Part shown: positions 6,442-53,380 of the stretch, piece by piece | Layout of the letters: every line of letters starts with the position of its first letter | Numbering within the stretch: position 1 is the stretch's first letter | Assembly (NCBI GenBank): GCA_963722305.1 | Contig: CAVRKE010000001.1 | Location: 181,529 to 245,528, forward strand | Length of the DNA stretch: 64,000 bases | Reading direction: 5' to 3' | Origin: Candidatus Levyibacteriota bacterium | GTDB lineage: Bacteria > Patescibacteriota > Microgenomatia > Levybacterales > UBA12049 | Made by a program: the position numbers and the translations under genes | Notes under the pieces: model-generated | The model's database searches: none | Seen by the model: only the letters and a program-made list of their open reading frames with translations | Told to the model about the DNA's origin: nothing

Positions 6442-7701
6442 TTAAAGAGATTTTATTTGCCTTTGGATCTGCGAAAGCCGATTGTATTTGGCCACTCTTT
6501 CACCTCTGGCCGGAGCACCGAATTTAACGTAATCAGCCGAAGCGGCCACGGCAAAGTCAGCAATAAAATCGTCATTGGTTTCACCGGAGCGGTGTGAAAC
6601 GGTAATTTTTAGTCCGGCATCCCTAGCCATTTCAACCACTGCCAACGCTTCCATCACCGTACCGATTTGGTTTGGCTTAATAATAATTCCGGTGATAGTT
6701 TTTTTGTCCAACGCCATCTGCAATCTGTAAGGATTTGTCACCGTTAAATCGTCTCCGATAATCAGGGTTTGCTGAGAAAGCTCGCTACAAAGATTTGTCC
6801 AGCCGTCCCAATCATCCTCGGAGAGCCCGTCTTCAAGATACAAAAAATGAAAATCATTGTTTAAAGTTTTATAAAAAGCAATTAAATCTTTCGACGATAA
6901 TCCGACTGCTTTATCATGAATATGATACTGCTGGTTGTTATAAAAATTACTGGCGGCGGCGTCCATGCCCAAAAATACGTCAAAACCAAGTCTTAAATTA
7001 ATTCCCTCGATTACTTCCTTTAGTATCAAAAGCGCATCTTGATTTGAGGACACTTTAGGCGAATACCCACCTTCGTCACCGATTAAAGTCGAAAGATTGT
7101 TTGTTTCCAAATGTTTTTTCAGCGCAGCATAAACGTTTGTACCGATTTGTAAATCTTCGTCGTATTTTTTGGATGTTGCCGGAATTACCAGAAACTCCTG
7201 AAAATCAAGTGAACCTTCCGCATGCAGACCGCCATTAATGAGGTTAAAAGCCGGGGTAGGCAGTTTAAGTGGTAGATTTTCCCTTTTGACAAACTCTCGC
7301 AGGTATAAAAATAGCGGCAAAACCGAACTTTTTGCGGCCGCTTTGGCAACGGCCATCGAAACCGAGAGAATCGCATTAGCACCAAGCCTGGATTTGTTGT
7401 TGGTTCCGTCAAGGGCAATCATTTTTTTATCAATATCCTGTTGTCTGCTTGCTTCCATTCCCAACAGGTTCGGGGCGATTATTTCTTCAATATTCATAAT
7501 CGCGTTTAATACTCCCAAACCCTGAAATCTTTTTTCGTCTTTATCTCTAACTTCAATTGCCTCATATTTTCCGGCAGAAGTGCCGGTTGGGCAGGAAGCA
7601 ATTCCCACCGCACCGTCGGTTAAGATAACAGCGGTTTCAATTGTCGGATGACCTTTGGAGTTTAAAATTTCTGTGGCTGAGATTTGTTTAATTTTTGCCA
7701 T
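6442..7701 (-). CDS. eno: enolase
   Basis: 419 aa with the enolase N-terminal (EILNSKGHPTIE) and C-terminal TIM-barrel signatures (SHRSGETNDDFIADFAVA). Confidence 0.95.
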   Translation of the reverse strand: MAKIKQISATEILNSKGHPTIETAVILTDGAVGIASCPTGTSAGKYEAIEVRDKDEKRFQGLGVLNAIMNIEEIIAPNLLGMEASRQQDIDKKMIALDGTNNKSRLGANAILSVSMAVAKAAAKSSVLPLFLYLREFVKRENLPLKLPTPAFNLINGGLHAEGSLDFQEFLVIPATSKKYDEDLQIGTNVYAALKKHLETNNLSTLIGDEGGYSPKVSSNQDALLILKEVIEGINLRLGFDVFLGMDAAASNFYNNQQYHIHDKAVGLSSKDLIAFYKTLNNDFHFLYLEDGLSEDDWDGWTNLCSELSQQTLIIGDDLTVTNPYRLQMALDKKTITGIIIKPNQIGTVMEALAVVEMARDAGLKITVSHRSGETNDDFIADFAVAASADYVKFGAPARGERVAKYNRLSQIQRQIKSL

Positions 7702-7706
7702 AGTAC

Positions 7707-9686
7707 TTATCTATTTAACAATTCTTTTTCCGATTGTGCAAGTAGTTTCCTTGTGCGTTCAATCAAAGCGGGTGGTACCGAAATACTCGATACCCCCCAG
7801 GATATTAAATTTCTTACCAGTTCGGGATAATCAGATACAGTTTGTCCAAAGATTGAGGAACTAATTCCGTGTTTATCCGCAGTTTTGACAACATGTTCAA
7901 ACGCCCACATAACCGGGGGGTACATCTCATTAAATTCACTGGTTACTTCGGGATTTTCCCGATCCGCACCCATAATTAAAGTCACTAATTCATCCGCAGC
8001 AATTGCTAATCCGTCAAGACCTGCCCCGATAAAGTTTTCCAGCATAATTAAGTTAGAAGGAATGCCTACGCTCATCCATAATTTAAAGTTTGGAGACTTT
8101 TCCAGTCCTATTTGCGCAAGGATTTGTTTTAGCTGAGTCAACTCCTCAACCGTTCTGACAAACGGTAGCATTAACGATAAATTCTGATAACCATAGTCGT
8201 TTCTGACAATTTTGATGGCTTCCAATTCTAAACGAAAAACTTCAGGGTCGTGAATGTGGCGTAAAGCCCCTCTAAAACCCAGTGCCGGATTTTGCTCCAA
8301 GGCTTCGAATTGTTTTCCACCGGCAAGTTTTCGGTACTCATCCGTTTTCAAATCCGAAATTCTGTAAACAACCGGCAGATCTTTAAAGTCTTTACTCACC
8401 TTAGCTAAATAGTAAACCAGTTTAGAAATATATTCGTTGGATTTTCGGTCATGGATTATTTGTTTCGGGTGAATTCCAATTCTTTCGATTATCAATTCCG
8501 AACGTAGTGGTAAAACTCCGTCGACATTTTGCTCAGCAATCTTTTCTGCCAACTCGGTCTCGGCAAAGTTAACATACAACTTAGTGGCGGTTTTTAAATT
8601 TGCTTTTGCATCCTGATTAATGTTTTCTTGAAGCGTAGTTTTGTAATATTGCTGCACAATATTTGTTTGGGAAATGTTCGCTGTGTTTATCCCCGAATTC
8701 TCGATAGAAAGCGGCTTTGTCTGAATAAGGTAAATTTGGCCGTCTGCTATGGACCATTCCGCGCCTTGCGGAAAATAATAATGTTTTTCTAAAGTGTTAG
8801 CCAGTTTAGCCAGTGCAATTATCTCTGCATCGCTTATTTTTTGTTTTTTTCCAAGACCATTTGGCAGCTTGACCGGTTTTTCACGGTAACCTGTTTTTTT
8901 AAACATTACCTTTTGCAAAGAAATTTTCTTGTTTAAGATTAAAAGGCTGCTTTTGCTAACTTCATAACGGTCCGGAATTTCCTTACCTTGGGCAATGACG
9001 CTGCTTAGTCCGTAAACTGCTTCAACCACTGTTTTGCCTTTATCATTGGTTAAGGTATCAAATGTCAATATGACCCCGGATTTTTCCGGTTCGAGGATTT
9101 TTTGGACAACCAAAGCTATTCTCGCCTTTGCGTGGTCAAATTTTCGCTGCTGCCGGTAAAGAATTGCCTCATGGTCAAAAAGAGACGCCCAGACCTGTTT
9201 GATTTTTTCCAAAAGGGCCGCATCGCCTTTGACGTTTAGAACGCTTTCTTTATTTCCGGCAAAAGCAGTAATCAAATCTTGAACAGTTACCGATGCTCTG
9301 ACTGCTACCAGCGGGTATTCAATTAAACCGCCCAGTTTGTTATAAGCAGTTGTAATTTCTTTAATCAACTTTTCGGACATTTGGCTTTCTTGAATGTGTT
9401 TCTGAATGTGTCTTGAAACATCCGAGACGGATTTTTCACTGTCAAAATTTACGGTCGAGAGTAAATGTTTAATTTTTATATCCAGCTTATTTTCCTTAAC
9501 AAAATCAAAGTAAGCATGGGAGGTAATTACAAATCCGTCGGGAATAGGAAAGCCGGCATTAGCCATTTCGCCAAGGTTTGCCGCTTTTTCGCCAACCAGC
9601 TGAATGTCATTTTTATCAATTTCCTCAAAACCAACAACAAATTTAGGCATTAAGCTTATTATGGAAGGATTTTCCCAAATTATCAA
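7707..9686 (-). CDS. PEP synthase / pyruvate,water dikinase-like protein that appears to lack the central phosphohistidine swivel domain
   Basis: 659 aa. An N-terminal PPDK_N-type ATP-grasp domain (GEKAANLGEMANAGFPIPDGF) and a C-terminal PEP-utilising TIM barrel are present. No GGxTSHAAI-like phosphohistidine motif occurs between them. Confidence 0.65.
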   Translation of the reverse strand: MIIWENPSIISLMPKFVVGFEEIDKNDIQLVGEKAANLGEMANAGFPIPDGFVITSHAYFDFVKENKLDIKIKHLLSTVNFDSEKSVSDVSRHIQKHIQESQMSEKLIKEITTAYNKLGGLIEYPLVAVRASVTVQDLITAFAGNKESVLNVKGDAALLEKIKQVWASLFDHEAILYRQQRKFDHAKARIALVVQKILEPEKSGVILTFDTLTNDKGKTVVEAVYGLSSVIAQGKEIPDRYEVSKSSLLILNKKISLQKVMFKKTGYREKPVKLPNGLGKKQKISDAEIIALAKLANTLEKHYYFPQGAEWSIADGQIYLIQTKPLSIENSGINTANISQTNIVQQYYKTTLQENINQDAKANLKTATKLYVNFAETELAEKIAEQNVDGVLPLRSELIIERIGIHPKQIIHDRKSNEYISKLVYYLAKVSKDFKDLPVVYRISDLKTDEYRKLAGGKQFEALEQNPALGFRGALRHIHDPEVFRLELEAIKIVRNDYGYQNLSLMLPFVRTVEELTQLKQILAQIGLEKSPNFKLWMSVGIPSNLIMLENFIGAGLDGLAIAADELVTLIMGADRENPEVTSEFNEMYPPVMWAFEHVVKTADKHGISSSIFGQTVSDYPELVRNLISWGVSSISVPPALIERTRKLLAQSEKELLNR

Positions 9687-9691
9687 GCAGA

Positions 9692-10735
9692 CTATTTTTT
9701 AAGTTCTTGTTTGAAGTAGTCGACCCAGGGGTTGACTGCCGGGTTTTGGCCATAAATGAGTCCAAGATAAAGAGTGAGATAGCTTCCAAAAACCATCACG
9801 TTTAGAAAATCTTCGTAAACATTTGCGCCGTTAGCCTCGTATTCAAAAACTTCGCGTTTATTCTGTTCGATAACTGTTTTTGTCAACACCATTCTTTTTT
9901 TAATCTTGTCCGAATAGTTAGCGGAGTTTAATAAAATAAAAATCAGGTTACTTTCGCTAGGGAATTGTAAGCCTTCCATCAAGTGGTGGTTTAAATCCGG
10001 TACGAGATAAAGCGCGGAAAACGTTTTGCTGGTTTCGTTAAACTGGTTTCTTAAAATCTGGGCATTGCCGGCCAAATGCTCGGCCGCAATCACAATCGGG
10101 ATTTTGTTTTCAAACTGTTTGACTGTGTCCAAGGCTTGTTTTTTAATGGTTGTTTTATTGTTGATGATATTTTCCAGCGCGGCTTTTAACTTCACTTCGT
10201 CAATATCAACGATTCCGGCTTTAAAAAGCAATCCTAATAATCCTAAGACCGAATAGCCATTGCCGAGTCTTGGTACTCCGGCCGGGTTTAACTTGGCATC
10301 AAAAATATAAGCAGGGATATTGTTTGTTTTGGCAAATTCGGCTAAGTCTCCGCCTTTAGTCAAGACTAACATCTTCGCGTTTTTTTCTTTAGCTTCTTTG
10401 GCGCACGATAGAACTTCTTCGGTTGTTCCGGAATAGCTAGTGAGAATAACTAATGTTTTCTCGTTAACATATTTTGGCAAATGGTAATCGCTGACCAGTT
10501 CAAACGGGTATTTCATTTCCGGGCCGACCAACGCACGCGTGACCAAAGCTCCGTAAATTGAAGCGCCCATGCCGCAGCAAACAATATTGGCAATTTGCTT
10601 ATAGTCGTTTGGGACATTTATAAGATTTACTTGCTTCCACGCTTCCTGACATTGTTTGGCTAAAAGTTCGGTTGAACCGAGGGTGTCACGGGGATCAAGC
10701 TTTTTAATCGCGTCAATATTGGTTAAATCAATCAT
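9692..10735 (-). CDS. bifunctional phosphoglucose/phosphomannose isomerase (archaeal-type SIS-domain PGI/PMI)
   Basis: 347 aa with two SIS-like halves (CCGMGASIYGA...SYSGTTEE) and a length typical of PGI/PMI. Confidence 0.65.
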   Translation of the reverse strand: MIDLTNIDAIKKLDPRDTLGSTELLAKQCQEAWKQVNLINVPNDYKQIANIVCCGMGASIYGALVTRALVGPEMKYPFELVSDYHLPKYVNEKTLVILTSYSGTTEEVLSCAKEAKEKNAKMLVLTKGGDLAEFAKTNNIPAYIFDAKLNPAGVPRLGNGYSVLGLLGLLFKAGIVDIDEVKLKAALENIINNKTTIKKQALDTVKQFENKIPIVIAAEHLAGNAQILRNQFNETSKTFSALYLVPDLNHHLMEGLQFPSESNLIFILLNSANYSDKIKKRMVLTKTVIEQNKREVFEYEANGANVYEDFLNVMVFGSYLTLYLGLIYGQNPAVNPWVDYFKQELKK

Positions 10736-11169
10736 TCTTCTCCTCTTTCGATTTTCCTTTGTTCGGGTGTTTCATCCGGACGTTTATAATCGTCTTCGAG
10801 CCGCAGTGTTGTTCCGGCTTCCGGACTGGAAACTTCCACAATATCGCAATCCGTAACCGCTTGATGGCGGTGCTTCTGCCCAACATGTGTCATATAGCCC
10901 AATCCTTTCTGCATCTGCACTGTTTCTATTTCACCATGCTTATTTTCGATAAGTAGATTACATTCACCGCTAAGTAACCAATAAGATTCTTGTTTTTGAT
11001 CATGAACTTGAAGCGAAAGTCTTTGTCCGGCATTGATATGTAAAATTTTGCCCATATATGACATCCCTTCAGGTACCCAATGTAATTCGTAACCCCAAGG
11101 TTTTTCAACTTTTTTAACGTAACCATCATTATTAAATTTTGACCTATCAATATTTTTTAAATCAATCAT
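10732..11169 (-). CDS. cupin-domain protein (mannose-6-phosphate isomerase type II C-terminal-like)
   Basis: Cupin motifs (KPWGYELHW...LHINAGQRLSLQVHDQKQESYWLL) are present. It overlaps the PGI/PMI stop by 4 nt (ATGA), consistent with an operon. The start is trimmed to an internal Met to remove overlap with pgm. Confidence 0.5.
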   Translation of the reverse strand: MIDLKNIDRSKFNNDGYVKKVEKPWGYELHWVPEGMSYMGKILHINAGQRLSLQVHDQKQESYWLLSGECNLLIENKHGEIETVQMQKGLGYMTHVGQKHRHQAVTDCDIVEVSSPEAGTTLRLEDDYKRPDETPEQRKIERGEE

Positions 11170-11173
11170 TTTA

Positions 11174-12568
11174 TTAACGGCCGGATGTGTCCCAGTCTTT
11201 GCTGACAACCTCGAATTTATTAAGCTTCTGTTTAAATAAAGCCTCTAATTTTTCCAGTCCTACTTGAGTTTTTGATTCAAATCTTAACACCAACGTAGGG
11301 GTGTTTGAAGAGGCACGTACAAGACCCCAACCGTCACCCGTATAAACACGAGCCCCATTGATGTCAATGACTTTGTAGCCTTCGTCTTTAAACTGCTTGG
11401 TAAGCGCGTCAACAACTTTATATTTGTCCTCGTCGGTTGTTTTGACCTGAATAGTCGGAGTTGAAATATAGTAAGGGGTGGTTGCGATGACTTGTGATAA
11501 AGTTTTATCCTGGGTTGAAAGGTATTCAAGCATTTTAAGCGCCGCAAATAATCCGTCATCAAATCCGTAAAAGTCGTCAACAAAAAAGATATGTCCGCTC
11601 ATTTCTCCGGCCATAGCCGCTTTCTCTTCTGCCAGCTTCGATTTTATGTATGAGTGTCCTGTTTTCCACATAATTGGAATTCCGCCATGTGCTTTAATAT
11701 CTTCGGGCAAAGCTTCAGAAACCTTGACATCAAAAACTATTTTGGCACCCGGGTGTTTTTGCAGAACCAATCTTGATAATAAGATTATGTATCTGTCCGG
11801 CCAAATCGTATTACCTTTCTCATCAACTAATCCCAGTCTATCGCCATCTCCATCAAAGGCAAATCCAAAATCACATTTGTTTAAAACTGTCTGTTTTCCG
11901 GTATCTTCCATCATTGCTGTCCCGTCGGGATTAGGCGTATAGTTTGGATACGAGGAATCAACGTTGGTAAAATGTTCAACAATCTCAGAACCGGTTTGTT
12001 TTAAAGCCTTAACGTAGACCGGACCAGCCGTTCCATTGCCTGAATTAACGAGAATTTTAAATTTCCGGGTTATTTTGGCCCGTGACAATAAATCTTTAAT
12101 GTAGGCATCTGTAATTTCTGCTTTTTTCACAGAACCGCTACCAACAGCAAATTCATCCTTGGCGATTAGGTCATACACTTCTTGCAGTTCAGCAGTTAAG
12201 AGTGTATAGGATAAATCGGAACCTAACTTAACACCGTTCCAACCGACCGGATTATGCGAAGCAGTTACGGTTAACAAACCTTTAACCTTTAGATAATATT
12301 GCGCCCAATAGCCCATCGGAGTTGTCACTGTCCCAATATCTACGACATTAATACCGCACTCGATAAGGCCTTTGATAGCGTTGGCATGAAAACTTTCTGA
12401 GGTGCGACGCGCGTCATGTCCGACGACTGCTGTATCAATTTTACGCTTGCGAAGAAATGTGCCAAATCCCCGGCCAATGTAATACATCGAAGTGTCATTG
12501 AGTTCGTCATCTGCTTCGCGACCGCGGAGATCATATTCACGAAACATGGTTTTTTTAAGAATTGGCAT
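11174..12568 (-). CDS. phosphoglucomutase/phosphomannomutase
   Basis: The active-site loop TASHNPVGWNGVK and the Mg-binding FDGDGDR are present. The start is taken at MPILKK.. because the upstream extension is low-complexity. Confidence 0.85.
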   Translation of the reverse strand: MPILKKTMFREYDLRGREADDELNDTSMYYIGRGFGTFLRKRKIDTAVVGHDARRTSESFHANAIKGLIECGINVVDIGTVTTPMGYWAQYYLKVKGLLTVTASHNPVGWNGVKLGSDLSYTLLTAELQEVYDLIAKDEFAVGSGSVKKAEITDAYIKDLLSRAKITRKFKILVNSGNGTAGPVYVKALKQTGSEIVEHFTNVDSSYPNYTPNPDGTAMMEDTGKQTVLNKCDFGFAFDGDGDRLGLVDEKGNTIWPDRYIILLSRLVLQKHPGAKIVFDVKVSEALPEDIKAHGGIPIMWKTGHSYIKSKLAEEKAAMAGEMSGHIFFVDDFYGFDDGLFAALKMLEYLSTQDKTLSQVIATTPYYISTPTIQVKTTDEDKYKVVDALTKQFKDEGYKVIDINGARVYTGDGWGLVRASSNTPTLVLRFESKTQVGLEKLEALFKQKLNKFEVVSKDWDTSGR

Positions 12569-12581
12569 AATACATTTAATC

Positions 12582-13271
12582 TTATAGACACAACAGAAAA
12601 AAGTCAATTGACTTTTCCATCGAGTAGGGAACCTTGCCTGTTTTTTGGTTGATTTCAATTTCGAACAACTGGTTATATGTCGCCAGTAGCTTTGCTTTGC
12701 CAAAAGCAGCCGCTTGGCTTCTAAATTTTGACAGCTGCCACGGAGCCAATCTTTTTACCTCGTCAATTTGCATCTCGCCGTTTCCCAGACTCAACATAAT
12801 CCGCAGCTGCCGGGTAATCATGAAAAAAACCAATTCCGGTGCCATGGTTTTTAAAAGTTGATGGAAAAGTTTAATCAAATTTTGTCCGTTTCTCGGCTTA
12901 ATGTTATCTAAAAAGGTAAACAAACCTTGTGGATAAGAAAAAACCTTGACTGTTGCATTTTTAAATGGATTTAGGGATGTTTTTGAAATTTCATCATCTT
13001 CCCAAAAAATAACGTCAATCGTTTTATTAGAATCCAAATATGAGATAATTTTTTTGAATTCAGCGTTATTGGTTTTATTTTTGGAAAAGAAATTTTCAAT
13101 CAGAATTACTATCTTTTCTTCAAAAAAAGTCTTATTTTCCGCTGTCTGAAAAATCTGGTCAAAGGTTATTCCGTCGCCACTAATAAAAACCGGATTCTGC
13201 AATTTATTCTTTTCGGCGAAGTAAAAATTTCGTGAAGACTCAATATCATTTCCGTGAATAATTGTAATCAT
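12582..13271 (-). CDS. DNA polymerase III delta subunit-like protein (short HolA)
   Basis: 229 aa. The N-terminus (MITIIHGND..S) and a C-terminal helical region resemble minimal HolA. Similarity is weak. Confidence 0.4.
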   Translation of the reverse strand: MITIIHGNDIESSRNFYFAEKNKLQNPVFISGDGITFDQIFQTAENKTFFEEKIVILIENFFSKNKTNNAEFKKIISYLDSNKTIDVIFWEDDEISKTSLNPFKNATVKVFSYPQGLFTFLDNIKPRNGQNLIKLFHQLLKTMAPELVFFMITRQLRIMLSLGNGEMQIDEVKRLAPWQLSKFRSQAAAFGKAKLLATYNQLFEIEINQKTGKVPYSMEKSIDFFLLCL

Positions 13272-14350: not shown

Positions 14351-15523
14351 TCAAGCTTTGAGCAGCCACTTGAAAAAGCCGGTCGTTGATTTATTCAATT
14401 GCTCAAAAATTGTCTGAATCGCTTCATTGGCTTTAAATTTTTTGGTCGGAAGAGAGAGATTTTGATTTTGGATTGAAACGGCAAAGTCTTTAGCCAACAA
14501 CGGGGCTCCTTTAACTTTTGGAAAATTTTTATAACCGGTATAAAGCGGCGTCTGGTTGCCGTTTTGTAAAAAAGACAAATTGTTAAATGACCCCGTGCCG
14601 GCATTCAAAAGAAAAGGCGTAATCGCCACAATGTTTGCATCATTCCAGTAATTGTTGAGAGCCTGATTATAATAGCTGACCTGTAAATTATAGGGAACTT
14701 GGTCGGACGACCAGCCTGTTTCGGTAATAAACACCGGCAACTCCTTGCCCGTCAACTCGTAAACAAGATTATTCTGATAATAAAAACTGTCAATCCCTTC
14801 CCGAAAATCCGACGGGGGAGCGGAAAATCCCGGATTTGGATATGAGTGGCTGCCTAACCCGTCGATTTCGGAAAATATACCGGGCACCGCATCATTCATT
14901 TGTTGCATATAGGTAAATTCGTCGATTGCCAAGGCGTTTAGTTGGTTAATCGAAGCATTATCCAAGCCCGCCGAAATGATAAAAAAGTCAGGGTTCTCCT
15001 GCTTAAAACGGTGGACTGCGTAATCAAGAATTTGGGCATAAGAAGTAGCATCGGGTGTTCCGCCCCATTCGTCACCGCGGTTTGGTTCGTTGTAGACAAC
15101 AATGTAACGGTTTTGCGTTGGCCAGCTAAGCGAATCCAAAAAATTGGCAAAATCAACTATATCGTTGTCGGACGGCTCCGACCACGAAGCGGTGCTAAAA
15201 TAATCTCCGTCGGTTGCCAAGCGAATGATTGGAATAAGATGGTATCGTTTGCAATCGTCCATAAATTTTTGCCATTTATCAAGGTTTTTATCGGAAGCCT
15301 GAATCGGGATGGTCACATATCCCCAGTCGCCGCCTGAAGAATTAACCAAATCGGCCGCCTTACTTAACTCTTCCGGAAAGAGAATGTGGATGCCGAATTT
15401 GTTGTTGGCCACCGATAGCGGAGCGTAAGCGGCAAGTGCTTGTGCTGAAAGAACTTTTGGTGAAAACAACAGTAACGCCGTACTAATAATTACCGCGAAG
15501 CAAACAACTTTTACAATTTTCAT
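14351..15523 (-). CDS. secreted clan GH-A (GH5-like) glycoside hydrolase
   Basis: N-terminal signal peptide (MKIVKVVCFAVIISTALLLFSPKVLSAQA). Acid/base NEP (VVYNEPNRG) and nucleophile ITETGW are typical of (beta/alpha)8 clan GH-A enzymes. Confidence 0.5.
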   Translation of the reverse strand: MKIVKVVCFAVIISTALLLFSPKVLSAQALAAYAPLSVANNKFGIHILFPEELSKAADLVNSSGGDWGYVTIPIQASDKNLDKWQKFMDDCKRYHLIPIIRLATDGDYFSTASWSEPSDNDIVDFANFLDSLSWPTQNRYIVVYNEPNRGDEWGGTPDATSYAQILDYAVHRFKQENPDFFIISAGLDNASINQLNALAIDEFTYMQQMNDAVPGIFSEIDGLGSHSYPNPGFSAPPSDFREGIDSFYYQNNLVYELTGKELPVFITETGWSSDQVPYNLQVSYYNQALNNYWNDANIVAITPFLLNAGTGSFNNLSFLQNGNQTPLYTGYKNFPKVKGAPLLAKDFAVSIQNQNLSLPTKKFKANEAIQTIFEQLNKSTTGFFKWLLKA

Positions 15524-18010: not shown

Positions 18011-19087
18011 CGAAGTGCAACACTTGAGGTAAAATCAATTACCGAAAGGAGGTGTTGCGCTATGTATAATCATTTAACTCTTGTAGAGCGGGAAGAGCTT
18101 TATGCGCTTAAGCATGCAGGACTAAGTCTGGGAGATATTGCAGATAAATTAGGACGAAACAAAGGCACTCTGTCTCGTGAACTCAAAAGAAACAGAACAT
18201 ATACCAAGGGATTGGAGAAAACTTCAGCCGTATATATTCCCTGCCGTGCACAACAAAAAGCTGATAAGAGAGCAGCTATTCAACGCTCTCAAGCATCCTG
18301 GAAAGGACCGGAGGTCTACTCTTATGTTAAAAAGAAACTAATAGAGAAACAGTGGTCTCCTGAAACAATTGCCGGAAGATTGTCAAAAGATCATCCCGAT
18401 CTTTCAATTGTCCATGAAACTATTTATCAGGCAATCTACAAACCACAGAACAAGCAATTTAAGCTCTGGCAATATCTAACAGTAAAACGCAAGAAAAGAA
18501 TGAAAAAGCTGGGAAGAAGGGTTAATAGAGATAGCCGTATTCCTGAAGCTATTTCGATTGATAGTAGACCCAAATCGATTGACACAAGATTACAACTTGG
18601 CCATTGGGAGACAGATAATGTGATAGGCCGCCAAACTGACAAGACTGCCCTGTCAGTAACGGTTGAAAGAAAACTAAGGCTTACTGTTATGTCAAAGCTA
18701 GCTGCTAAAACAGCAGATGAAAAAACTAAGAAACTGTTTGCTAGAATGAGTCGTTTTCCTGACAAAATCAGAAAAACTCTGACTGCTGACAATGGAGCTG
18801 AAAATACCAAACATAAACAAATTACGGAGAGCTTAGACATGTCTGTATATTTCTGTCATGCATATCACTCCTGGGAAAAAGGAACGGTTGAAAATATGAA
18901 TGGAAGAATCAGGCGTTTTATTCCTAAAGGCATAAGCATGGATCTAATTACCGAAAGAGACGTTGCTTTAATTGAATGGGAACTGAATAATACGCCCAGA
19001 AAATGTTTGGATTGGAAAACACCACTTGAAGTTTTAGGAGAAATCATGCAGAATACAAAAACCTCAAATCGTTGCACTTCGAGCTAG
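18011..19087 (+). mobile_element. IS30-family insertion sequence (about 1.07 kb) with imperfect terminal inverted repeats
   Basis: IRL cgaagtgcaacacttgaggt (18011-18030) matches IRR acctcaaatcgttgcacttcg (19052-19072) in 18 of 20 positions with one indel. A single DDE transposase ORF lies between them. Confidence 0.8.
18062..19087 (+). CDS. IS30-family DDE transposase
   Basis: 341 aa with an N-terminal HTH (LSLGDIADKLGRNKGTLSRELKRN) and an IS30-type catalytic region (HWETD...ADNGAENT...YFCHAYHSWEKG). Confidence 0.85.
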   Translation: MYNHLTLVEREELYALKHAGLSLGDIADKLGRNKGTLSRELKRNRTYTKGLEKTSAVYIPCRAQQKADKRAAIQRSQASWKGPEVYSYVKKKLIEKQWSPETIAGRLSKDHPDLSIVHETIYQAIYKPQNKQFKLWQYLTVKRKKRMKKLGRRVNRDSRIPEAISIDSRPKSIDTRLQLGHWETDNVIGRQTDKTALSVTVERKLRLTVMSKLAAKTADEKTKKLFARMSRFPDKIRKTLTADNGAENTKHKQITESLDMSVYFCHAYHSWEKGTVENMNGRIRRFIPKGISMDLITERDVALIEWELNNTPRKCLDWKTPLEVLGEIMQNTKTSNRCTSS

Positions 19088-41071: not shown

Positions 41072-42670
41072 TTACCTAACGTTCGGACTTTCAAACTTTA
41101 CCCTAGGAATAACAAGATGTATTGTTTCTTTGGTTTTGGGATTTGTGTACTCAACTATTTCAAGTATCTTCTTTGCATCTTTTGCGTAGCCGTTAATGAG
41201 CGCGTCCATATCCCAAATTCTAATTAGAACCTTTCCACTGGATGGCATAGTATCCAAAGCCTGCTGTAATCCATATTGAAAATTATGAATTCCAAAATTT
41301 GGATTTTTCCATCCCTTGCCCTGAAGCTCCGTGTACTCAACCCCGATACCATATTTCTTTCTAAATTCATCAACTTTTGCAAATTTTCCACCAATGGGAG
41401 CAAACATTCCGAACGGGCTAAGTATTTCATCCCAGGTCTCCGGCCCCATTTGCCCAACTACGGGAGCATTCAACAAATCAGCTTTACCAACCAGTGTATT
41501 TACTGAAGCAATGTCCGTATAAATGTCCCAACCAAAAATAAGTTTCTTTGGATCTACGCCTTCGTTTATCAACTCTTCAAACAAATTCAAAACTGCATCA
41601 ACGTTAAGAGGACCGGCGGAATTTACTAATACCTTTGCGTTAGGGAATGTTTCCATTCCTTGGTATATCAATTCTTTCATATACTCCTTATCTATTGTCC
41701 AACCACGGTTCCCAAAGCTTTGGAACGGTTCGTTTTCTGGCTGGATAATTTTTATTGCGTTTAATTGTTCCTGAGTATAATTTTGCTTCAAATAACTAAA
41801 TAGTTTTTTAGTGTAATCGATTCCGGCTTTTGCTAATGCACTGTCTTTTGTAATAACACCGCCGTCAGGCGGAACATCAACGCTTTCCAGTACTTCATCC
41901 GGTTGAAAAGTCTCGGGATTATTCGGATTTTTATCTGGACCGTAAGCTAAAGCAATATTAATATTATTGGCAATCATGTAATCGAAAAACGGTTTGTAAT
42001 AACCGAAGTCTATATTTCCGTTTGCATCAACTGCATTTTGCCAACGAATTCCAATACGAATATCGTTGAAGTTATATTGCTCATGCATTTTCCGCAGCAT
42101 TACCATTGCTTTTTCCGGAGTTGCGAATATTTCCGGAATGAAGGTCGTACCGAAATCTACTCTAGAAAGAGCTTCCTGGTTTTCCTTTATGAAATCCTGC
42201 GTAAAAAGTTGCGATGTCCTCAGCTCCTGACTGTTCTTATCTAAGGCCGGTTTTACAATACCAAATGTATAAGTAAGCGCCAAGCCGACGCTGGCAAGTG
42301 TCGCAATAACTTTTTTCGTTTTTAACTTATTTTTAAGGAATTCGACTACTGTGTTTACTTTTGTTTCAAAAACGTTATTATCGATGCTTTTGTCTGCAAC
42401 ATATAGAACTTCTTCTCCCGCCTCCCAGGGTATCGGTTTTTCCCGTAGATCTTGTTGGGGATTAGATGGCAATTCCACAATAACAACTTCCGAAAAATCG
42501 CCTGCTATCCGCGCCAAAGCTGCTTCTCCAGTTTGGCCAAAAGAAACGTCCGAACTGTTACGCCAACGAAAAGGAAATATTCTTGCGGATGGCGTTTCCG
42601 AAACGTTTTTTCTCGGCCCAGCATACAGATGGTGTTGGTTAAACCGGGGTAGACGAATTATGTTTGGCAA
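41072..42670 (-). CDS. clan GH-A glycoside-hydrolase-like protein with an N-terminal membrane anchor (paralogue-like to the gene at 14351-15523)
   Basis: ENEP acid/base-like motif (IIQPENEPFQSFGNRGW) and an N-terminal hydrophobic anchor (KKVIATLASVGLALTYTF). The annotated N-terminus is probably over-extended. Confidence 0.4.
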   Translation of the reverse strand: MPNIIRLPRFNQHHLYAGPRKNVSETPSARIFPFRWRNSSDVSFGQTGEAALARIAGDFSEVVIVELPSNPQQDLREKPIPWEAGEEVLYVADKSIDNNVFETKVNTVVEFLKNKLKTKKVIATLASVGLALTYTFGIVKPALDKNSQELRTSQLFTQDFIKENQEALSRVDFGTTFIPEIFATPEKAMVMLRKMHEQYNFNDIRIGIRWQNAVDANGNIDFGYYKPFFDYMIANNINIALAYGPDKNPNNPETFQPDEVLESVDVPPDGGVITKDSALAKAGIDYTKKLFSYLKQNYTQEQLNAIKIIQPENEPFQSFGNRGWTIDKEYMKELIYQGMETFPNAKVLVNSAGPLNVDAVLNLFEELINEGVDPKKLIFGWDIYTDIASVNTLVGKADLLNAPVVGQMGPETWDEILSPFGMFAPIGGKFAKVDEFRKKYGIGVEYTELQGKGWKNPNFGIHNFQYGLQQALDTMPSSGKVLIRIWDMDALINGYAKDAKKILEIVEYTNPKTKETIHLVIPRVKFESPNVR

Positions 42671-43274: not shown

Positions 43275-44228
43275 ATGTTAAATCAATCACCTGAAGGATA
43301 TAGACAAGGAATTCCAATAGAAACACCTGGTTTTAGCGGAGATGCTTCTTCGCATACAGATGGTGTTGTAACCAGAATTAATCGTAGAGATTATATGCCT
43401 GGATTTTTAGAAACTACCCCAGTCACAATAATTCAACATAATCCTAATGGACAACTTGTTTTTAGCACAGAATATGATAAACGGCAGCTTACGCCCGAAG
43501 AAAATATGGCAATTGATGAACAACTTAAAGGTCCTGATACCATAGTTGAGATACTTCCTGACGGTGAAATTAGCATAGATCGCGGTTCAGCTCTTGAAAA
43601 TGGGTCACCAGCTTGGTTCACTCAGTGTAAAGAATTAGGTGTTAAAAGAGCCTTAAAAGAAGCAGCAGTTTTAGAAGCATTAACTGGATTCCAGAACGTA
43701 TTTTGGGGACCACATATTGGAAAAATAACTCCAATTATGGTCGTAGATCCTGATTCTGGTATTGAATATCAGACAGGCATCAGATTAAGTCATGATTTTC
43801 CTTGGACTACTACTGAAAAAAGAAAATTTAGAAGACCGAAAGCTATTCCGATTGTGGGCAAAAATGTTGTAGACATTACCTATAAAGCAACTGAAGCTAC
43901 TAAAGATTCAGGAGTTTTAGATACTGGTAACATATATTATCGTGAGAAATCAGCTGTAATAAGTATTCTTGCATTTCTTGATCCAAATGAACTTGAAGGT
44001 ATAGAAAATCCAACCACTTATAACCCTGATGATTTAAGATTTTTAAGTAAATTAGGAATTGGTTTAAATTTAGCTTTTGATCCGCAGCGTTTTAAACCGG
44101 ATAAAGATTTGACCTTAAAAATAGATGGAATTTTACAACGATTCGGAGATTTTACCGTATCACTGGGAACAAATGCTCCGCAACTAATCGAAAGGGGAAC
44201 AGAAAGAGCTAAAACATCTGTTAAGTAA
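43275..44228 (+). CDS. hypothetical protein
   Basis: 317-aa ORF with no recognisable motif, immediately upstream of the Fic gene. Confidence 0.3.
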   Translation: MLNQSPEGYRQGIPIETPGFSGDASSHTDGVVTRINRRDYMPGFLETTPVTIIQHNPNGQLVFSTEYDKRQLTPEENMAIDEQLKGPDTIVEILPDGEISIDRGSALENGSPAWFTQCKELGVKRALKEAAVLEALTGFQNVFWGPHIGKITPIMVVDPDSGIEYQTGIRLSHDFPWTTTEKRKFRRPKAIPIVGKNVVDITYKATEATKDSGVLDTGNIYYREKSAVISILAFLDPNELEGIENPTTYNPDDLRFLSKLGIGLNLAFDPQRFKPDKDLTLKIDGILQRFGDFTVSLGTNAPQLIERGTERAKTSVK

Positions 44229-44455: not shown

Positions 44456-45664
44456 ATGAACAAAATAGCTTCAAAACCATTCGCACACACTTTTTTATCA
44501 CAGTTTGTTCTTATACAAAAGCTGCTGCCTTTTTCTGATGATGAAATCAAAAATATAGATGCAGAACTGGCAGAGTATGAACAAGTATTCTTAAATCCGG
44601 ATATAGAGAAGAACTTGATTAGCAGAAATGAGCTTTTAGCTTCTTTTGCTATCTCTAAAGCGGAAAACTCAACCCTAACGCTTCAAGAGGCGCAAGATGT
44701 TTATAACTTACTGCTTACAAATGAAGAGTACACTTTTATTTCGGATAAACTTAAAAAAAAAGAAAAATTAACGCAGAAAGATTATGACAAGCTGGAGTTT
44801 TATAATATCGCCAAAACTTTTCGTAGTCTTAATGAAACACCGTTTAGTATCGATAATATCACGGCTGACGACATACGCAGACTCCACCAAAGCTTAAGCC
44901 TTGGATTAGATGTGTTTGAAAAGTATTTACTTGATTTTACTGTTTATAAATCCGGTAAGTTTCGCGATAATGATACGATTAGAGTTGGCAGCTATATACC
45001 GGCTCCTTTTGAAGCGATAGAGAAAGGAGTTGAAGAGCTTCTTTTGTATCTTAAAACCAACAAAACCATTACCGGAGTGGCTGTTTTTCATACTGGTCTT
45101 TATGCTCTTCATCCATTTAACAATGGGAATAAGCGAGTTTGTCGAATCTTAGAACACATTTTCTTTCGGGATCTTGGTTTAAATCAGAAAAATCTTTACA
45201 GTACTTCATATTATTACCATAAGCAAAAACAAAGGTATTATAAATACTTACTCTATTCCCTTGAGCGAAGAAATCTAAACCATTTTGTTTCCTTTGTCCA
45301 AGAAGCGCTTGTATTGTCTATGATTGGAGTTTTAAAATTAAGTCTTTCAGCAAAACGAAGTGAATTTTTAAGTAATCAAACAAGCGATGAGCAAATACGT
45401 CTTGTTTTAAAATCTTTGATTAAAAGACGTGAATTACAGTTTAAAAACCTGTTTGTAGCAGTCAGGGGTAAAATGGCCAGACAAACTTTTGTAAATCAGT
45501 TACAAAAAGCCACAGATGAAAAGATTATTCTAAAACGTGAAGCAGGACGAACTACCTATTATTGTCTTAATTTTAATACGCCCGAGGAAGAAGCACTGAA
45601 TAGATGGCTTACTTTTGCCAAGAAGAAACTATCCTACATACCCGATGAGATAAAATTGTTATAG
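44456..45664 (+). CDS. Fic/Doc-family protein with a variant active-site motif
   Basis: HPFNNGNKRVCR matches the Fic core HPFx(D/E)GNGRxxR except for N at the D/E position and K at the second G. The C-terminus looks like a winged helix. Confidence 0.7.
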   Translation: MNKIASKPFAHTFLSQFVLIQKLLPFSDDEIKNIDAELAEYEQVFLNPDIEKNLISRNELLASFAISKAENSTLTLQEAQDVYNLLLTNEEYTFISDKLKKKEKLTQKDYDKLEFYNIAKTFRSLNETPFSIDNITADDIRRLHQSLSLGLDVFEKYLLDFTVYKSGKFRDNDTIRVGSYIPAPFEAIEKGVEELLLYLKTNKTITGVAVFHTGLYALHPFNNGNKRVCRILEHIFFRDLGLNQKNLYSTSYYYHKQKQRYYKYLLYSLERRNLNHFVSFVQEALVLSMIGVLKLSLSAKRSEFLSNQTSDEQIRLVLKSLIKRRELQFKNLFVAVRGKMARQTFVNQLQKATDEKIILKREAGRTTYYCLNFNTPEEEALNRWLTFAKKKLSYIPDEIKLL

Positions 45665-50044: not shown

Positions 50045-53000
50045 ATGTCGAGGTACTTCGTTATGAGTAACAAATTTTTTTCAACCTTGAAATTTTTAAT
50101 CGGCTGGCCTTTGTCGATTATTGCCCTTCTATTTATTCTGAGAATTATTACTCCGAATATAAAAGTTGTTTTTGAAAATTTATCAAGAATCAATTTTGCA
50201 TATCTATGTTTTGCTTTATTGAGTTTTTTTACGTATTTTTTACTGCGCAGTTTTTTATGGAAGAGCATCGTTGACCGGAAAGGCAATAAACTAAACTTTA
50301 AAAAAATTTCTTACCTTTGGGCGTTTTCCGAATTAAAAAGGTATATTCCCGGAAATGTTTGGTCAATATTGGCCAGAGGGACGTCGTCTTTAGAAGCCGG
50401 CTTAGACAAAAAAGCGATTGCCAATGCATTAATTATTGAGGTTGAACTAATAATCATTGCCGGTTATATCCTTTCTCTTCCGTTTATGCTTTATTTCTCT
50501 TGGGGAACTGTTTTTAACATCCTTTTTTTGCTGCTTGGAATCATTCTAATTTTATTGTTTATTTTTGGCAGCATGATTAAGATCGGTAAGCTGTCTATTC
50601 TTTTTCCCGGAATCAATTACTCCGAAAATGCAAAAATATTCCTAATTTCACTGGTAACTTTTTTTATGTTTGGTCTCGGCACATTTTTTGCCATCGTTTC
50701 TTTATTCTACTTCGACCCGAATCTTATCTGGATTATTGTCAGTCTTTCCGTTTTCTCCCTTTTGGCCGGATACGTATCATTAATAACGCCGATGGGGCTG
50801 GGCGTTAGGGAAGGAGTAATGACTTTTTATCTTTCGCGGTTTATTCTAACATCCTCAGCCGGTCTGGTTTCAATTTTTTCCAGAATAGTACTAATTATTT
50901 CCGAAATTATTTTTTTGCTGTTCGTTTTTTGCTGGAATCAAATTAAAAACAAGCTTCTAACCAACATTGAAGATTTTATCTCAACACACAAGTACGCACT
51001 TTGTTTGGGATTATTTATTCTTGCTTATATCCTTTACTTTACTGCAGCCAGCTTTTTAAGATATGACAATTTTTTTACCGGACGGTTTGACCTTGGAAAC
51101 ATGGACCAAACTGTCTGGAATACAATTCACGGAAGAATTTTTCAAACAACAGACGCAAACGGTACTGCGATTATTTCAAGACTCGCTTATCACGCCGATT
51201 TTATTTTAATTCTTATCGCACCACTATACCTTATTTGGTCAAACCCGGGAATGCTACTGCTATTACAAACCGTCGTCTTGGGATTGGGCGCGGTGTTTAT
51301 TTATTTTATTGCCACTAATCTCTTGAAGAACAAAAATCTGGCTTTGGTTTTCTCCGCCATTTATCTTTTAAATCCGTCTCTACAGTTTACCAATCTTTAT
51401 GATTTTCATGCGGTAGTTTTGGGCACAACATTGCTACTTGGAACTTTTTATTTTTTTCTCAAAAAAAACTATCTATTTTTTATTTTGTTTGCCGTTTTAT
51501 CAGGATTAACTAAAGAAGATATTTGGGCAATAATTGCAATCTTCGGTTTGGCAATAATTACACGCGCAATCATAGAAAATAAATTAAGCATAAACTTATC
51601 TAAAAAACGATTGTTGGAAGTTCTGCTTGGACTAACTGTTTTTCTATTATCAAGTTTTATTTTTTACCTTTTAATCTGGATTATAATCCCTTATTTTAAC
51701 GGCGCACAACACTTTGCAATTTCTTATTTTTCAGATTACGGTGGTACCGCTTCCGATATTTCTAAAAATATCGTTTTTATGCCTCTAAAAACTCTCTCTC
51801 TATTATTCACTGTACAAAATATTCATTATCTCTTTCAATTGTTTTTGCCATTTGGATTTATTTCTCTTATTTCTCCGCTTTACTTGATTTTTGCCGTACC
51901 GGATTTACTGATTAATCTACTGGGCACAAATTTGGGATTTCACGAAATTTATTACCAATATACTGCCGCGATAACACCGTTTATCGCAATCTCTTCTATT
52001 TATGCTGCCTTTTTTTTGAAAAAACATTTTTCGCTAATCAACAATCGGATAATAATTACTTACCTTATTATTGCGGCTTTAATTTCTGTCTATCTTTATG
52101 GGCCGCTGCCGGGAACTTTGCATGCAAATGTAGACATGTTTAAAAAGCAACTGGTTAACAGTAAGATTATTGATAATTTTATTTCAACTATTCCAACCAG
52201 GTTTAGCATTGCGGCTACCAATAATTTGGGCTCTCATCTTTCCCGAAGACAAAAAATTTATACCATTCCTGTCGGCATTGACCAAGCCGACGTGGTGCTG
52301 TTTTTGCTAAACGACCCATTCGCCCAGCCATCGCTTCAGGCTCAAAAAAACATGGCTATGCAAATGAAGAATGATAAAAGATATATCCAGGTTTTTAAAG
52401 ACGGTGATTTCATTGCTTTCGAAAAAAGAACTCTTTACACCCAGGCCAATGCAAAGCCCAAAAAAGGACTGGTTAATCTTTTCCCGTATTCCATCACTGC
52501 TCTTTCCAACCGCAGCTACCAAAAAAGTGACATTACCGTTGAACGACAGGCCCATGGTGACGGAAATTTCCAGAGTTTTGTAATTTCTTTTATTTCCGAC
52601 GGCTTAAAAGAATATGCTTTAATGAATATACCGAATTCTCCAATGCCGGCAGGCGGATTTCCGGTGTTAATTCTTGACCACGGCTATATTCAGCCCAGTG
52701 CTTATGACACCGTCAATTCTTATAAATCCGAATCCGATTACTTTGCCAATCAAGGCTTTTTAGTTTTGAAGCCTGACTACAGAGGCAACGGTAATTCGGA
52801 AAACACCGACCAAGCCCTGATGCGTTTTGCTTATCCGATAGATGTCTTAAACTTATTGTCATCTGTCGCAAATATTTCAGCTGCCAATCCTAATCAAATT
52901 TTCTTCTGGAGTCATTCCATGGGTGGGGAAGTAACACTTGAGGTTTTGGAAGCCGCAGCCAAAAATAAAGATCTGGCTGGAAAAATAAAAGGCGCAATCT

Positions 53001-53380
53001 TTTGGGCACCGGTTACGGACCCGGTAAAATGGTTTTCGAAAAGCCATCTGCCGGCTCTCCCCGAAGCAATTATCACACCCTATCCTTATACGCAAACTTT
53101 TCAAATCTTAGGTACTCCAGACAAAAACCCGCAGCTTTGGCAATCACTTTCGCCCTTAAACTATCTAAATAGTATTAACGTTCCAATCCTTCTGCAACAC
53201 GGAACCGGGGATACAACCGTTCCTTATTCATGGTCGGTTGAGTTAAACCAAGATTTACTGACACTAAAGAAAACAATCACTTTTATCTCTTATCCTAACG
53301 ACACGCATAACCTACCGCTGTTTTGGTCTAAAGCGGTTAACGACGACTTAAATTTTTTAAATCACCTTTTAGGTAAATAA
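50045..53380 (+). CDS. 1111-aa fusion: flippase-like (UPF0104/LPG-synthase TM-like) membrane domain, DUF2079 membrane domain and a C-terminal alpha/beta-hydrolase (S9/esterase-like)
   Basis: The N-terminal ~300 aa are polytopic. The middle has the DUF2079 hallmark RYDNFFTGRFDLGNMDQTVWN. The C-terminus has the nucleophile elbow SHSMGG and the LLQHGTGDTTVP acid/His region. Confidence 0.55.
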   Translation: MSRYFVMSNKFFSTLKFLIGWPLSIIALLFILRIITPNIKVVFENLSRINFAYLCFALLSFFTYFLLRSFLWKSIVDRKGNKLNFKKISYLWAFSELKRYIPGNVWSILARGTSSLEAGLDKKAIANALIIEVELIIIAGYILSLPFMLYFSWGTVFNILFLLLGIILILLFIFGSMIKIGKLSILFPGINYSENAKIFLISLVTFFMFGLGTFFAIVSLFYFDPNLIWIIVSLSVFSLLAGYVSLITPMGLGVREGVMTFYLSRFILTSSAGLVSIFSRIVLIISEIIFLLFVFCWNQIKNKLLTNIEDFISTHKYALCLGLFILAYILYFTAASFLRYDNFFTGRFDLGNMDQTVWNTIHGRIFQTTDANGTAIISRLAYHADFILILIAPLYLIWSNPGMLLLLQTVVLGLGAVFIYFIATNLLKNKNLALVFSAIYLLNPSLQFTNLYDFHAVVLGTTLLLGTFYFFLKKNYLFFILFAVLSGLTKEDIWAIIAIFGLAIITRAIIENKLSINLSKKRLLEVLLGLTVFLLSSFIFYLLIWIIIPYFNGAQHFAISYFSDYGGTASDISKNIVFMPLKTLSLLFTVQNIHYLFQLFLPFGFISLISPLYLIFAVPDLLINLLGTNLGFHEIYYQYTAAITPFIAISSIYAAFFLKKHFSLINNRIIITYLIIAALISVYLYGPLPGTLHANVDMFKKQLVNSKIIDNFISTIPTRFSIAATNNLGSHLSRRQKIYTIPVGIDQADVVLFLLNDPFAQPSLQAQKNMAMQMKNDKRYIQVFKDGDFIAFEKRTLYTQANAKPKKGLVNLFPYSITALSNRSYQKSDITVERQAHGDGNFQSFVISFISDGLKEYALMNIPNSPMPAGGFPVLILDHGYIQPSAYDTVNSYKSESDYFANQGFLVLKPDYRGNGNSENTDQALMRFAYPIDVLNLLSSVANISAANPNQIFFWSHSMGGEVTLEVLEAAAKNKDLAGKIKGAIFWAPVTDPVKWFSKSHLPALPEAIITPYPYTQTFQILGTPDKNPQLWQSLSPLNYLNSINVPILLQHGTGDTTVPYSWSVELNQDLLTLKKTITFISYPNDTHNLPLFWSKAVNDDLNFLNHLLGK

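Follow-up and report, generated by a model that had tools for sequence, protein, structure and literature searches.

Phosphoenolpyruvate (PEP) synthase (PpsA), pyruvate,phosphate dikinase (PPDK) and Enzyme I (EI) operate by an established mechanism that relies on a swivelling histidine. What, then, is a ppsA gene kept for when the domain that bears this histidine is gone? The question is raised by a stretch of 64,000 nucleotides from a Candidatus Levyibacteriota bacterium (GenBank assembly GCA_963722305.1, contig CAVRKE010000001.1, positions 181,529 to 245,528 of the forward strand), which is called the window here and numbered from its first letter. On its minus strand, directly upstream of the enolase gene (eno), lies a degenerate orthologue of ppsA without the phosphohistidine swivel domain; we refer to this gene and its product as pps*. 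Its domain content, active sites, evolutionary rate and relatives argue that pps* is probably a PpsA-derived pseudoenzyme, namely a catalytically dead, folded two-domain protein that relaxed purifying selection would keep for a non-catalytic purpose.

Loss of the phosphohistidine domain

An unbroken minus-strand reading frame spans 7707..9686, and a protein of 659 aa had been assigned to it in the initial annotation. The frame is indeed open to 9686, but translation almost certainly starts from the ATG at 9650, judged from the N-terminus MPKF found in all homologues. This gives pps* a product of 647 aa plus stop (7707..9650, minus strand), identical to protein P0001 in public assemblies. The alternative start, a TTG at 9686 that would add 12 residues, falls on the -35-like hexamer of a promoter-like site (TTGATA-17-CATAAT; 9658..9686, minus strand), which was recognized by consensus match only, at 10 of 12 positions. 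The site falls within the 41-nt gap (9651-9691) 5' of the pps* ATG, and inspection of this gap revealed no obvious Shine-Dalgarno sequence ahead of the ATG. Residue numbers below refer to the 647-aa protein unless canonical numbering is indicated, while the Pfam hits on either side of the linker (29-333 and 354-653) follow the 659-aa reading.

Two of the three PpsA domains are retained, as the initial annotation had proposed. The ATP-grasp (PPDK_N) domain comprises residues 1-316 (8703..9650, minus strand) and was delimited by Pfam, alignments, a codon check, AlphaFold and Foldseek. The PEP/pyruvate-binding TIM barrel (PEP-utilizers_C) comprises residues 353-647 (7710..8594, minus strand) and was delimited by Pfam, alignment to solved PpsA and EI chains, and Foldseek. 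The corresponding Pfam matches are PPDK_N at residues 29-333 (E 1.8e-79) and PEP-utilizers_C at 354-653 (E 4.1e-45). Between them, residues 317-352 (8595..8702, minus strand; defined by profiles, alignment and AlphaFold) form a linker that replaces the swivel domain of about 105 residues. With about 35 residues, this linker is shorter than the 55 or so first estimated.

The absence of the swivel domain and of its GGxTSHAAI-type histidine motif, also noticed at the outset, was borne out in several ways. There is no Pfam match to the mobile domain (PF00391) in pps*, and a hidden Markov model (HMM) of the 105-residue swivel domain, built from canonical relatives and run with all filters off, found nothing in the six frames of the window, pps* included. 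A full-length canonical profile aligns to pps* in two blocks, 2-325 and 434-756, with about 108 profile positions absent. No histidine occurs in the linker segment (residues 311-352), and a divergent but intact His-containing domain was looked for and not found. Apart from one short helix the linker is predicted to be disordered (pLDDT <50 in the AlphaFold model), and it is the fastest-evolving part of pps*, with a dN/dS ratio (omega) of about 0.35. The family models respond in the same manner: pps* matches the NCBIfam PEP synthase models as two separate stretches and scores 547.2 with NF005057, below the equivalog cut-off of 598, and 522.1 with TIGR01418, below the cut-off of 739.75.

A chimeric or collapsed contig, or an error of gene calling, might also remove a central domain. 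The assemblies are metagenome-derived, and truncated or split ppsA genes occur in other contigs (L046, L050). The identical protein P0001, however, is found on a contig of 608 kb and on an independent Logan assembly, and the same deletion junction is present in two relatives, P0002 (73% identical to pps*) and P0127. Since the deletion is also in-frame and its flanks show correlated decay of the active sites, we consider an artefact of this kind scarcely credible.

Decay of the active sites in the retained domains

The protein was compared with 166 canonical PpsA relatives, in which 211 columns are invariant at 97% or more. pps* departs from 80 of these near-invariant columns, whereas the median among canonical sequences is 0 and the maximum 13. 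Changes beyond the deleted domain fall on residues that carry out the chemistry in this enzyme superfamily, their roles being those established by the enzymology of PPDK and EI. Ten of 17 named catalytic positions are altered, and the replacements comprise D297G, R313K, E124Q, E218S, E633G, N657D, D658E and C705F in canonical numbering.

For the ATP-grasp domain, the catalytic set comprises the equivalents of PPDK K22, R92, D321, E323, Q335 and R337. The motif GGKGANLGE has become GEKAANLGE in pps*, ATAEDL has become VTVQDL (E124Q), and GLGE has become GLSS. PQD.EW is replaced by PQGAEW, with Asp changed to Gly at residue 296 (8763-8765), and VQTR by IQTK, with Arg changed to Lys at residue 312 (8715-8717); G296 and K312 stand at the equivalents of PPDK D321 and R337. 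The residues K22, R118, E298 and Q310 are retained. For the PEP domain, the catalytic set consists of the Mg ligands Glu and Asp, an Asn and the proton-donor Cys (PPDK E745/N768/D769/C831; EI E431/N454/D455/C502). Here MVEIP is changed to SVGIP, Glu being replaced by Gly (G529; 8064-8066), GSNDL to AADEL, Asn-Asp being replaced by Asp-Glu (D553 and E554; 7989-7994), and CGQ to FGQ, Cys being replaced by Phe (F601; 7848-7850). The mapping of these motifs was borne out by alignment to solved PpsA and EI chains.

Both domain folds appear intact in the predicted model. AlphaFold gave a mean pLDDT of 84, with values <50 only at residues 128-133 and in the linker (311-348), and mostly >80 across the ATP-grasp domain. 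In Foldseek comparisons of this model, the C-terminal domain superposes on archaeal PpsA (9dae, 8a8e) at a root-mean-square deviation of 1.2-1.6 A, and the N-terminal domain matches the ATP-grasp domains of rifampin phosphotransferase (RPH) and HpeI (5hv6, 9goj). The pTM of 0.50 makes the inter-domain geometry too unreliable to judge contact between the two domains.

Given the swivelling-His mechanism, the absence of the His domain together with the mutation of both active sites implies that pps* would be unable to run the reaction ATP + pyruvate <-> PEP + AMP + Pi.

Position of pps* in a conserved gene block

The gene order in the window is holA - PMM - cupin - PGI - pps* - eno - DedA - LexA - UvrB. 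This arrangement recurs in the related Patescibacteria contigs L002 and L003, where the slot of pps* holds a canonical three-domain ppsA of 751 aa, and also in six contigs with other short or degenerate forms (L001, L105, L106, L107, L108 and L110). Because it occupies the slot held by canonical ppsA in sister genomes, pps* is a positional orthologue of ppsA and not a paralogue; of the earlier suggestion of a degenerate paralogue, the degeneracy stands, with catalytic residues replaced, and the paralogy does not. The host belongs to a small clade of Patescibacteria (Microgenomates/Levybacteria-like).

As first described, pps* lies upstream of eno (6442..7701, minus strand) and is co-oriented with it. 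Only 5 nt separate its stop from the eno ATG, and no minus-strand terminator-like site was found between the two genes. The enolase was identified by its open reading frame (ORF) and by Pfam and, with an omega of about 0.02, was used as the clock in the rate comparisons below.

Selection on the degenerate gene

Between the window and contig L001, pps* is 73-74% identical, with a dN of 0.156 and a dS of about 1.1. The resulting omega is 0.135 (bootstrap interval 0.10-0.17), with 0.13 for the ATP-grasp and 0.11 for the PEP domain. Since the whole branch between the window and L001 is later than the inactivating changes, this estimate describes the degenerate state. The neighbouring enolase fragment of the same pair is 96% identical (dN 0.016, omega 0.02), and canonical ppsA pairs give omega values of 0.02-0.07. 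The ratio of ppsA to enolase distance is about 0.7 for canonical pairs versus 4.3-6.8 in the degenerate clade. Constraint on pps*, expressed as amino-acid rate relative to canonical ppsA with enolase as the clock, is thus relaxed roughly 5-10-fold, yet it is far from absent. Neither of the marks of a pseudogene, a broken frame or an omega of about 1, was seen in pps*. In neutral simulations limited to substitutions, a single one of 2000 runs still had an open ORF at 0.1 substitutions per site, and none of the 2000 did at 0.2 or more.

An open frame could also be kept indirectly. pps* might be a decaying pseudogene whose protein has no role, and whose frame is retained only for the sake of the co-transcribed eno, which would otherwise suffer from polarity or lost translational coupling. 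The pps-eno junctions are tight or overlapping at all loci, a promoter-like site precedes pps* and no terminator-like site precedes eno. The strongly accelerated amino-acid rate and a shrinking gene, whose deletions are all in-frame and lineage-specific, also fit this explanation. Polarity, however, acts on stops and frameshifts and not on missense changes, and yet omega is 0.135 over both domains. Across 96 degenerate representatives, 63 columns are conserved at 85% or more, and AlphaFold predicts the fold with confidence. Moreover, escape would be easy, through a new ribosome-binding site for eno or deletion of the ORF, given a dS >1 and strong deletion pressure in a 608-kb genome. We regard it as unlikely that frame retention for eno is the whole explanation, although the frame is probably kept in part by selection against mutations that have polar effects or break the coupling.

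Close relatives and the order of events

Seven closely related degenerate proteins, gathered by searches from P0121 (peat metagenome contig L032), preserve different stages of the decay. In P0128 (748 aa) the swivel domain is kept and there are no deletions, but the phospho-His position is Tyr. The same Tyr is found in P0122 and P0123 (701 aa each), which keep the swivel and bear two deletions in the ATP-grasp domain. P0121 (704 aa) has a degenerate swivel in which the His is retained, and its ATP-grasp Lys is lost. The swivel is deleted, and the His accordingly absent, in the remaining three: P0127 (598 aa), which has ATP-grasp deletions too, and P0001 of the window (647 aa) and P0002 (645 aa), both with complete ATP-grasp segments. 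The reading frame is open in all seven lineages.

Two replacements, R313K and N657D, are common to all seven proteins. The other catalytic positions vary by lineage: D658, the Mg-ligand Asp, appears as E, N, H, S, D or C, and at the position of the ATP-grasp Asp the residues are G, G, S, E, E and E. In an enolase tree the hosts of the seven forms make up one tight clade, with the canonical-ppsA genome L024 as sister. Because the swivel-keeping relatives P0122, P0123 and P0128 have the phospho-His changed to Tyr, loss of catalysis probably preceded loss of the domain, and the simplest reading is that the swivel deletion in the window gene was a late, secondary event. Every deletion preserves the frame, the deletions vary from lineage to lineage, and the gene is becoming shorter (598-704 aa in comparison with about 750).

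P0127, encoded on contig L107, combines the swivel junction of the window/L001 group with the ATP-grasp deletions of the L032 group, and clusters overall with L032. This mosaic points to recombination among degenerate alleles or to parallel deletions; a sliding-window comparison for recombination gave a weak signal only.

Other degenerate forms of PpsA

A profile of six degenerate proteins was compared with 1.84 billion cluster representatives (clusters formed at 50% identity), and the best 150 were taken. The profile was built to enrich degenerate forms, so the counts that follow are lower bounds and give no prevalence. At least 5 of 17 scored catalytic positions are changed in 106 of 148 representatives retrieved in this way, and the motif alignments of degenerate representatives were inspected by eye. 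The majority of the 106 are full-length three-domain proteins with Y, P, Q, F or another residue in place of the His. The swivel domain is missing from at least eight more, whose junctions differ, and these losses are therefore taken to be independent. The 63 columns conserved at 85% or more across 96 strongly degenerate representatives, mentioned above, consist largely of Gly, Pro and aromatic residues that determine the fold; the catalytic positions, by contrast, are scrambled. Members of two degenerate clusters carry the NCBI name "phosphoenolpyruvate synthase". All 20 matches in a scan of genome contigs other than those of the window's own genome were full-length canonical genes.

The number of origins was considered from several sides. 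The swivel-less P0148 occupies the same syntenic slot, and its host falls outside the canonical L024, L002 and L025 genomes by enolase, which indicates that degeneration occurred independently at least twice or that an allele was transferred. Each degenerate form has its best match to a different canonical sequence, as expected under a single or a multiple origin. A neighbour-joining tree of 277 sequences grouped 69 degenerate ones together, but long-branch attraction makes this monophyly untrustworthy, and the host enolase tree speaks for two or more origins.

Several other unusual forms were seen. P0181 (661 aa) and P0166 (545 aa) have no swivel domain, and most or all of their scored catalytic residues survive (the ATP-grasp set is intact in P0181, the PEP-domain set in P0166); each may be a true split or non-canonical enzyme, the product of a recent deletion, or an artefact of the gene model. 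Among relatives that are otherwise canonical, L046 has a ppsA that stops at profile position ~526, and in L050 the gene is divided between two ORFs near residue 389; these breaks could be frameshifts, pseudogenes or assembly errors. L098 and L101 encode on the minus strand (7335-10040 and 8394-11099, respectively) a 902-aa ORF with weak, fragmentary similarity to PpsA, which lies beside canonical ppsA on the opposite strand and may be a PPDK or RPH-like dikinase paralogue.

Comparison with known dikinases and pseudoenzymes

Canonical PEP synthase (N. meningitidis 2OLS; archaeal 8A8E and 9DAE; families NF005057 and TIGR01418) is the direct evolutionary source of pps* and occupies the same slot beside eno. 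Over the two retained domains pps* is 57-62% identical to Patescibacteria PpsA and shares its ATP-grasp and TIM-barrel folds. Unlike canonical PpsA, it has no swivel domain or phospho-His, its PEP-domain Cys, Asn-Asp and Mg-ligand Glu and its ATP-grasp Asp and Arg are replaced, it falls below the equivalog cut-offs, and it evolves 5-10 times faster relative to enolase.

The modules of the dikinase superfamily are separable and can be recombined, as seen in two-component dikinases (phenylphosphate synthase PpsAB, CreHI, HpeHI) and RPH, whose ATP-grasp domains are similar to that of pps*. It could thus be supposed that pps* is an active enzyme, served by a phosphohistidine carrier in trans as in PpsAB, CreHI and HpeHI, or catalyzing a new reaction. 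Split dikinases exist and work via transient complexes (PMC12167813; compare the match to 9goj). The ligand-binding residues K22, R118, R383, R430, R460 and R564 persist, both domains are under purifying selection, and the swivel-less P0181 and P0166 keep most of their catalytic residues. The two-component dikinases, however, keep the His swivel on the partner protein together with all catalytic residues, and in HpeHI the change of His to Gln abolishes activity (PMC12167813); their second substrate domain has a fold unlike the PEP-binding TIM barrel. In pps* both active sites have had their Mg ligands and catalytic residues substituted. No gene for a partner lies close by: pps* is flanked by PGI and eno, and no swivel-domain ORF occurs in the 64-kb window. 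The replacements in sister lineages differ (D658 to E, N, H, S, D or C), so that no new conserved active site has emerged, and the swivel-keeping relatives have lost the His. The proposal of a non-canonical PEP-metabolizing enzyme, made when the gene was first described, is consequently not upheld, and an active enzyme of either kind seems very improbable to us.

Like pseudoenzymes in general, for example bacterial pseudokinases, pps* is an enzyme homologue without the conserved catalytic motifs, whose gene is under purifying selection. Most described pseudoenzymes arise from duplicated paralogues. Unlike most of them, pps* is a single positional orthologue, and a whole catalytic domain is gone. 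No description of a PpsA-derived pseudoenzyme, or of a PpsA without the phosphohistidine domain, turned up in the searchable literature.

A probable pseudoenzyme and its possible origin

The pseudoenzyme interpretation of pps* implies a sequence of steps. A three-domain ancestor would first have gained substitutions at catalytic positions, R313K and N657D being present in all members. Individual lineages would then have lost more catalytic residues while their active sites drifted, and in-frame deletions would have trimmed the domains, removing the whole swivel in the window lineage and, elsewhere, segments of the ATP-grasp domain. pps* would still be made and kept, most likely for a non-catalytic role, either structural or in the binding of a ligand or partner via the TIM-barrel and ATP-grasp folds. 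PpsA and EI form dimers by way of the TIM barrel. The retention of pps* may in addition owe something to selection for uninterrupted translation into the abutting, co-transcribed eno. The same decay appears to have taken place in many other PpsA lineages of Patescibacteria.

Some points weigh against the pseudoenzyme interpretation. That pps* is dead is deduced from sequence and from the known mechanism of its homologues, and some pseudoenzymes have proved active via relocated residues. The PEP-phosphate-binding arginines R383, R430, R460 and R564 remain in pps*, as do the ATP-grasp Lys22 and Arg118, and ligand binding or residual chemistry is possible given these residues. dS is near saturation and omega is thus approximate, although the bias that saturation introduces is upward and not downward. 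The independence of the degenerate lineages is suggested, with long-branch effects and transfer of alleles at a recombination-prone locus as alternatives. Finally, no pyruvate kinase or PPDK was found by Pfam among the 20 largest other ORFs of the window, which covers 64 kb of a genome of about 608 kb; the other ~540 kb may encode a stand-alone swivel protein, or a pyruvate kinase or PPDK that compensates.

What the non-catalytic purpose might be can be proposed with much less confidence. Possibly, though we consider it doubtful, PpsA has a second, non-catalytic job in Patescibacteria that selection preserves, either in a structural or regulatory partnership with enolase or lower glycolysis, or as a sensor of PEP or nucleotides. 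If true, this would explain why many lineages independently shed the chemistry and whole domains and yet keep the protein in genomes of about 0.6 Mb.

Neighbouring genes and other features of the window

Upstream of pps*, the conserved block contains three sugar-phosphate genes, namely a SIS-type PGI/PMI (9692-10735, minus strand), a cupin (10732-11208, minus strand) and PMM (11174-12703, minus strand). The position immediately 5' of ppsA is especially prone to gene replacement: it holds a 347-aa SIS-type PGI/PMI in the window, L105, L106 and L108, and a 205-aa cupin-type GPI in L001, L002, L024 and L025. The PMM of the window is only about 28-30% identical to that of L001, while the flanking cupin and eno are 80-96% identical.

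Elsewhere in the window, a 341-aa protein with HTH_38 and an rve integrase core (18062-19087, plus strand) looks like a transposase of the IS30-family type and is notable in a genome of about 0.6 Mb. In a protein of 1111 aa (50045-53380, plus strand), an LPG_synthase_TM-like region is fused to DUF2079 (a predicted membrane protein) and, at the C-terminus, to an S9/alpha-beta-hydrolase domain, and a 402-aa Fic/DOC-domain protein is encoded at 44456-45664 (plus strand). Three further ORFs, of 532 aa (41072-42670, minus strand), 390 aa (14351-15523, minus strand) and 317 aa (43275-44228, plus strand), have no Pfam match at E <= 1e-5. By size and position, the 390-aa ORF may correspond to an unannotated gene of 382-391 aa upstream of RNaseH_like in L002, L105 and L108.

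Implications for Patescibacteria

Only about one in three Candidate Phyla Radiation (CPR) genomes has a pyruvate kinase, and PEP synthetase has been invoked to close glycolysis (PMC7304191). A 2026 preprint reports that PEP synthase is retained in ultra-reduced DPANN archaea without obvious pathway context (10.64898/2026.05.13.725050). The present results bear on such reconstructions. At least 106 PpsA-like clusters at 50% identity are without the catalytic apparatus, some of them under the NCBI name PEP synthase, and presence or absence calls based on HMMs can accordingly be wrong. Lower glycolysis in Patescibacteria/CPR, which is often closed on paper by a "PEP synthase", is affected by this.

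The route itself is unusual, since most known pseudoenzymes are duplicated paralogues. Here a single-copy enzyme of central metabolism would have become a retained pseudoenzyme, through stepwise and recurrent domain loss whose order can be read from living intermediates. That 2 kb of a "dead" gene persists in an ultra-reduced genome points to an unrecognized function of the PpsA scaffold or to a strong operon-level constraint on the expression of eno.

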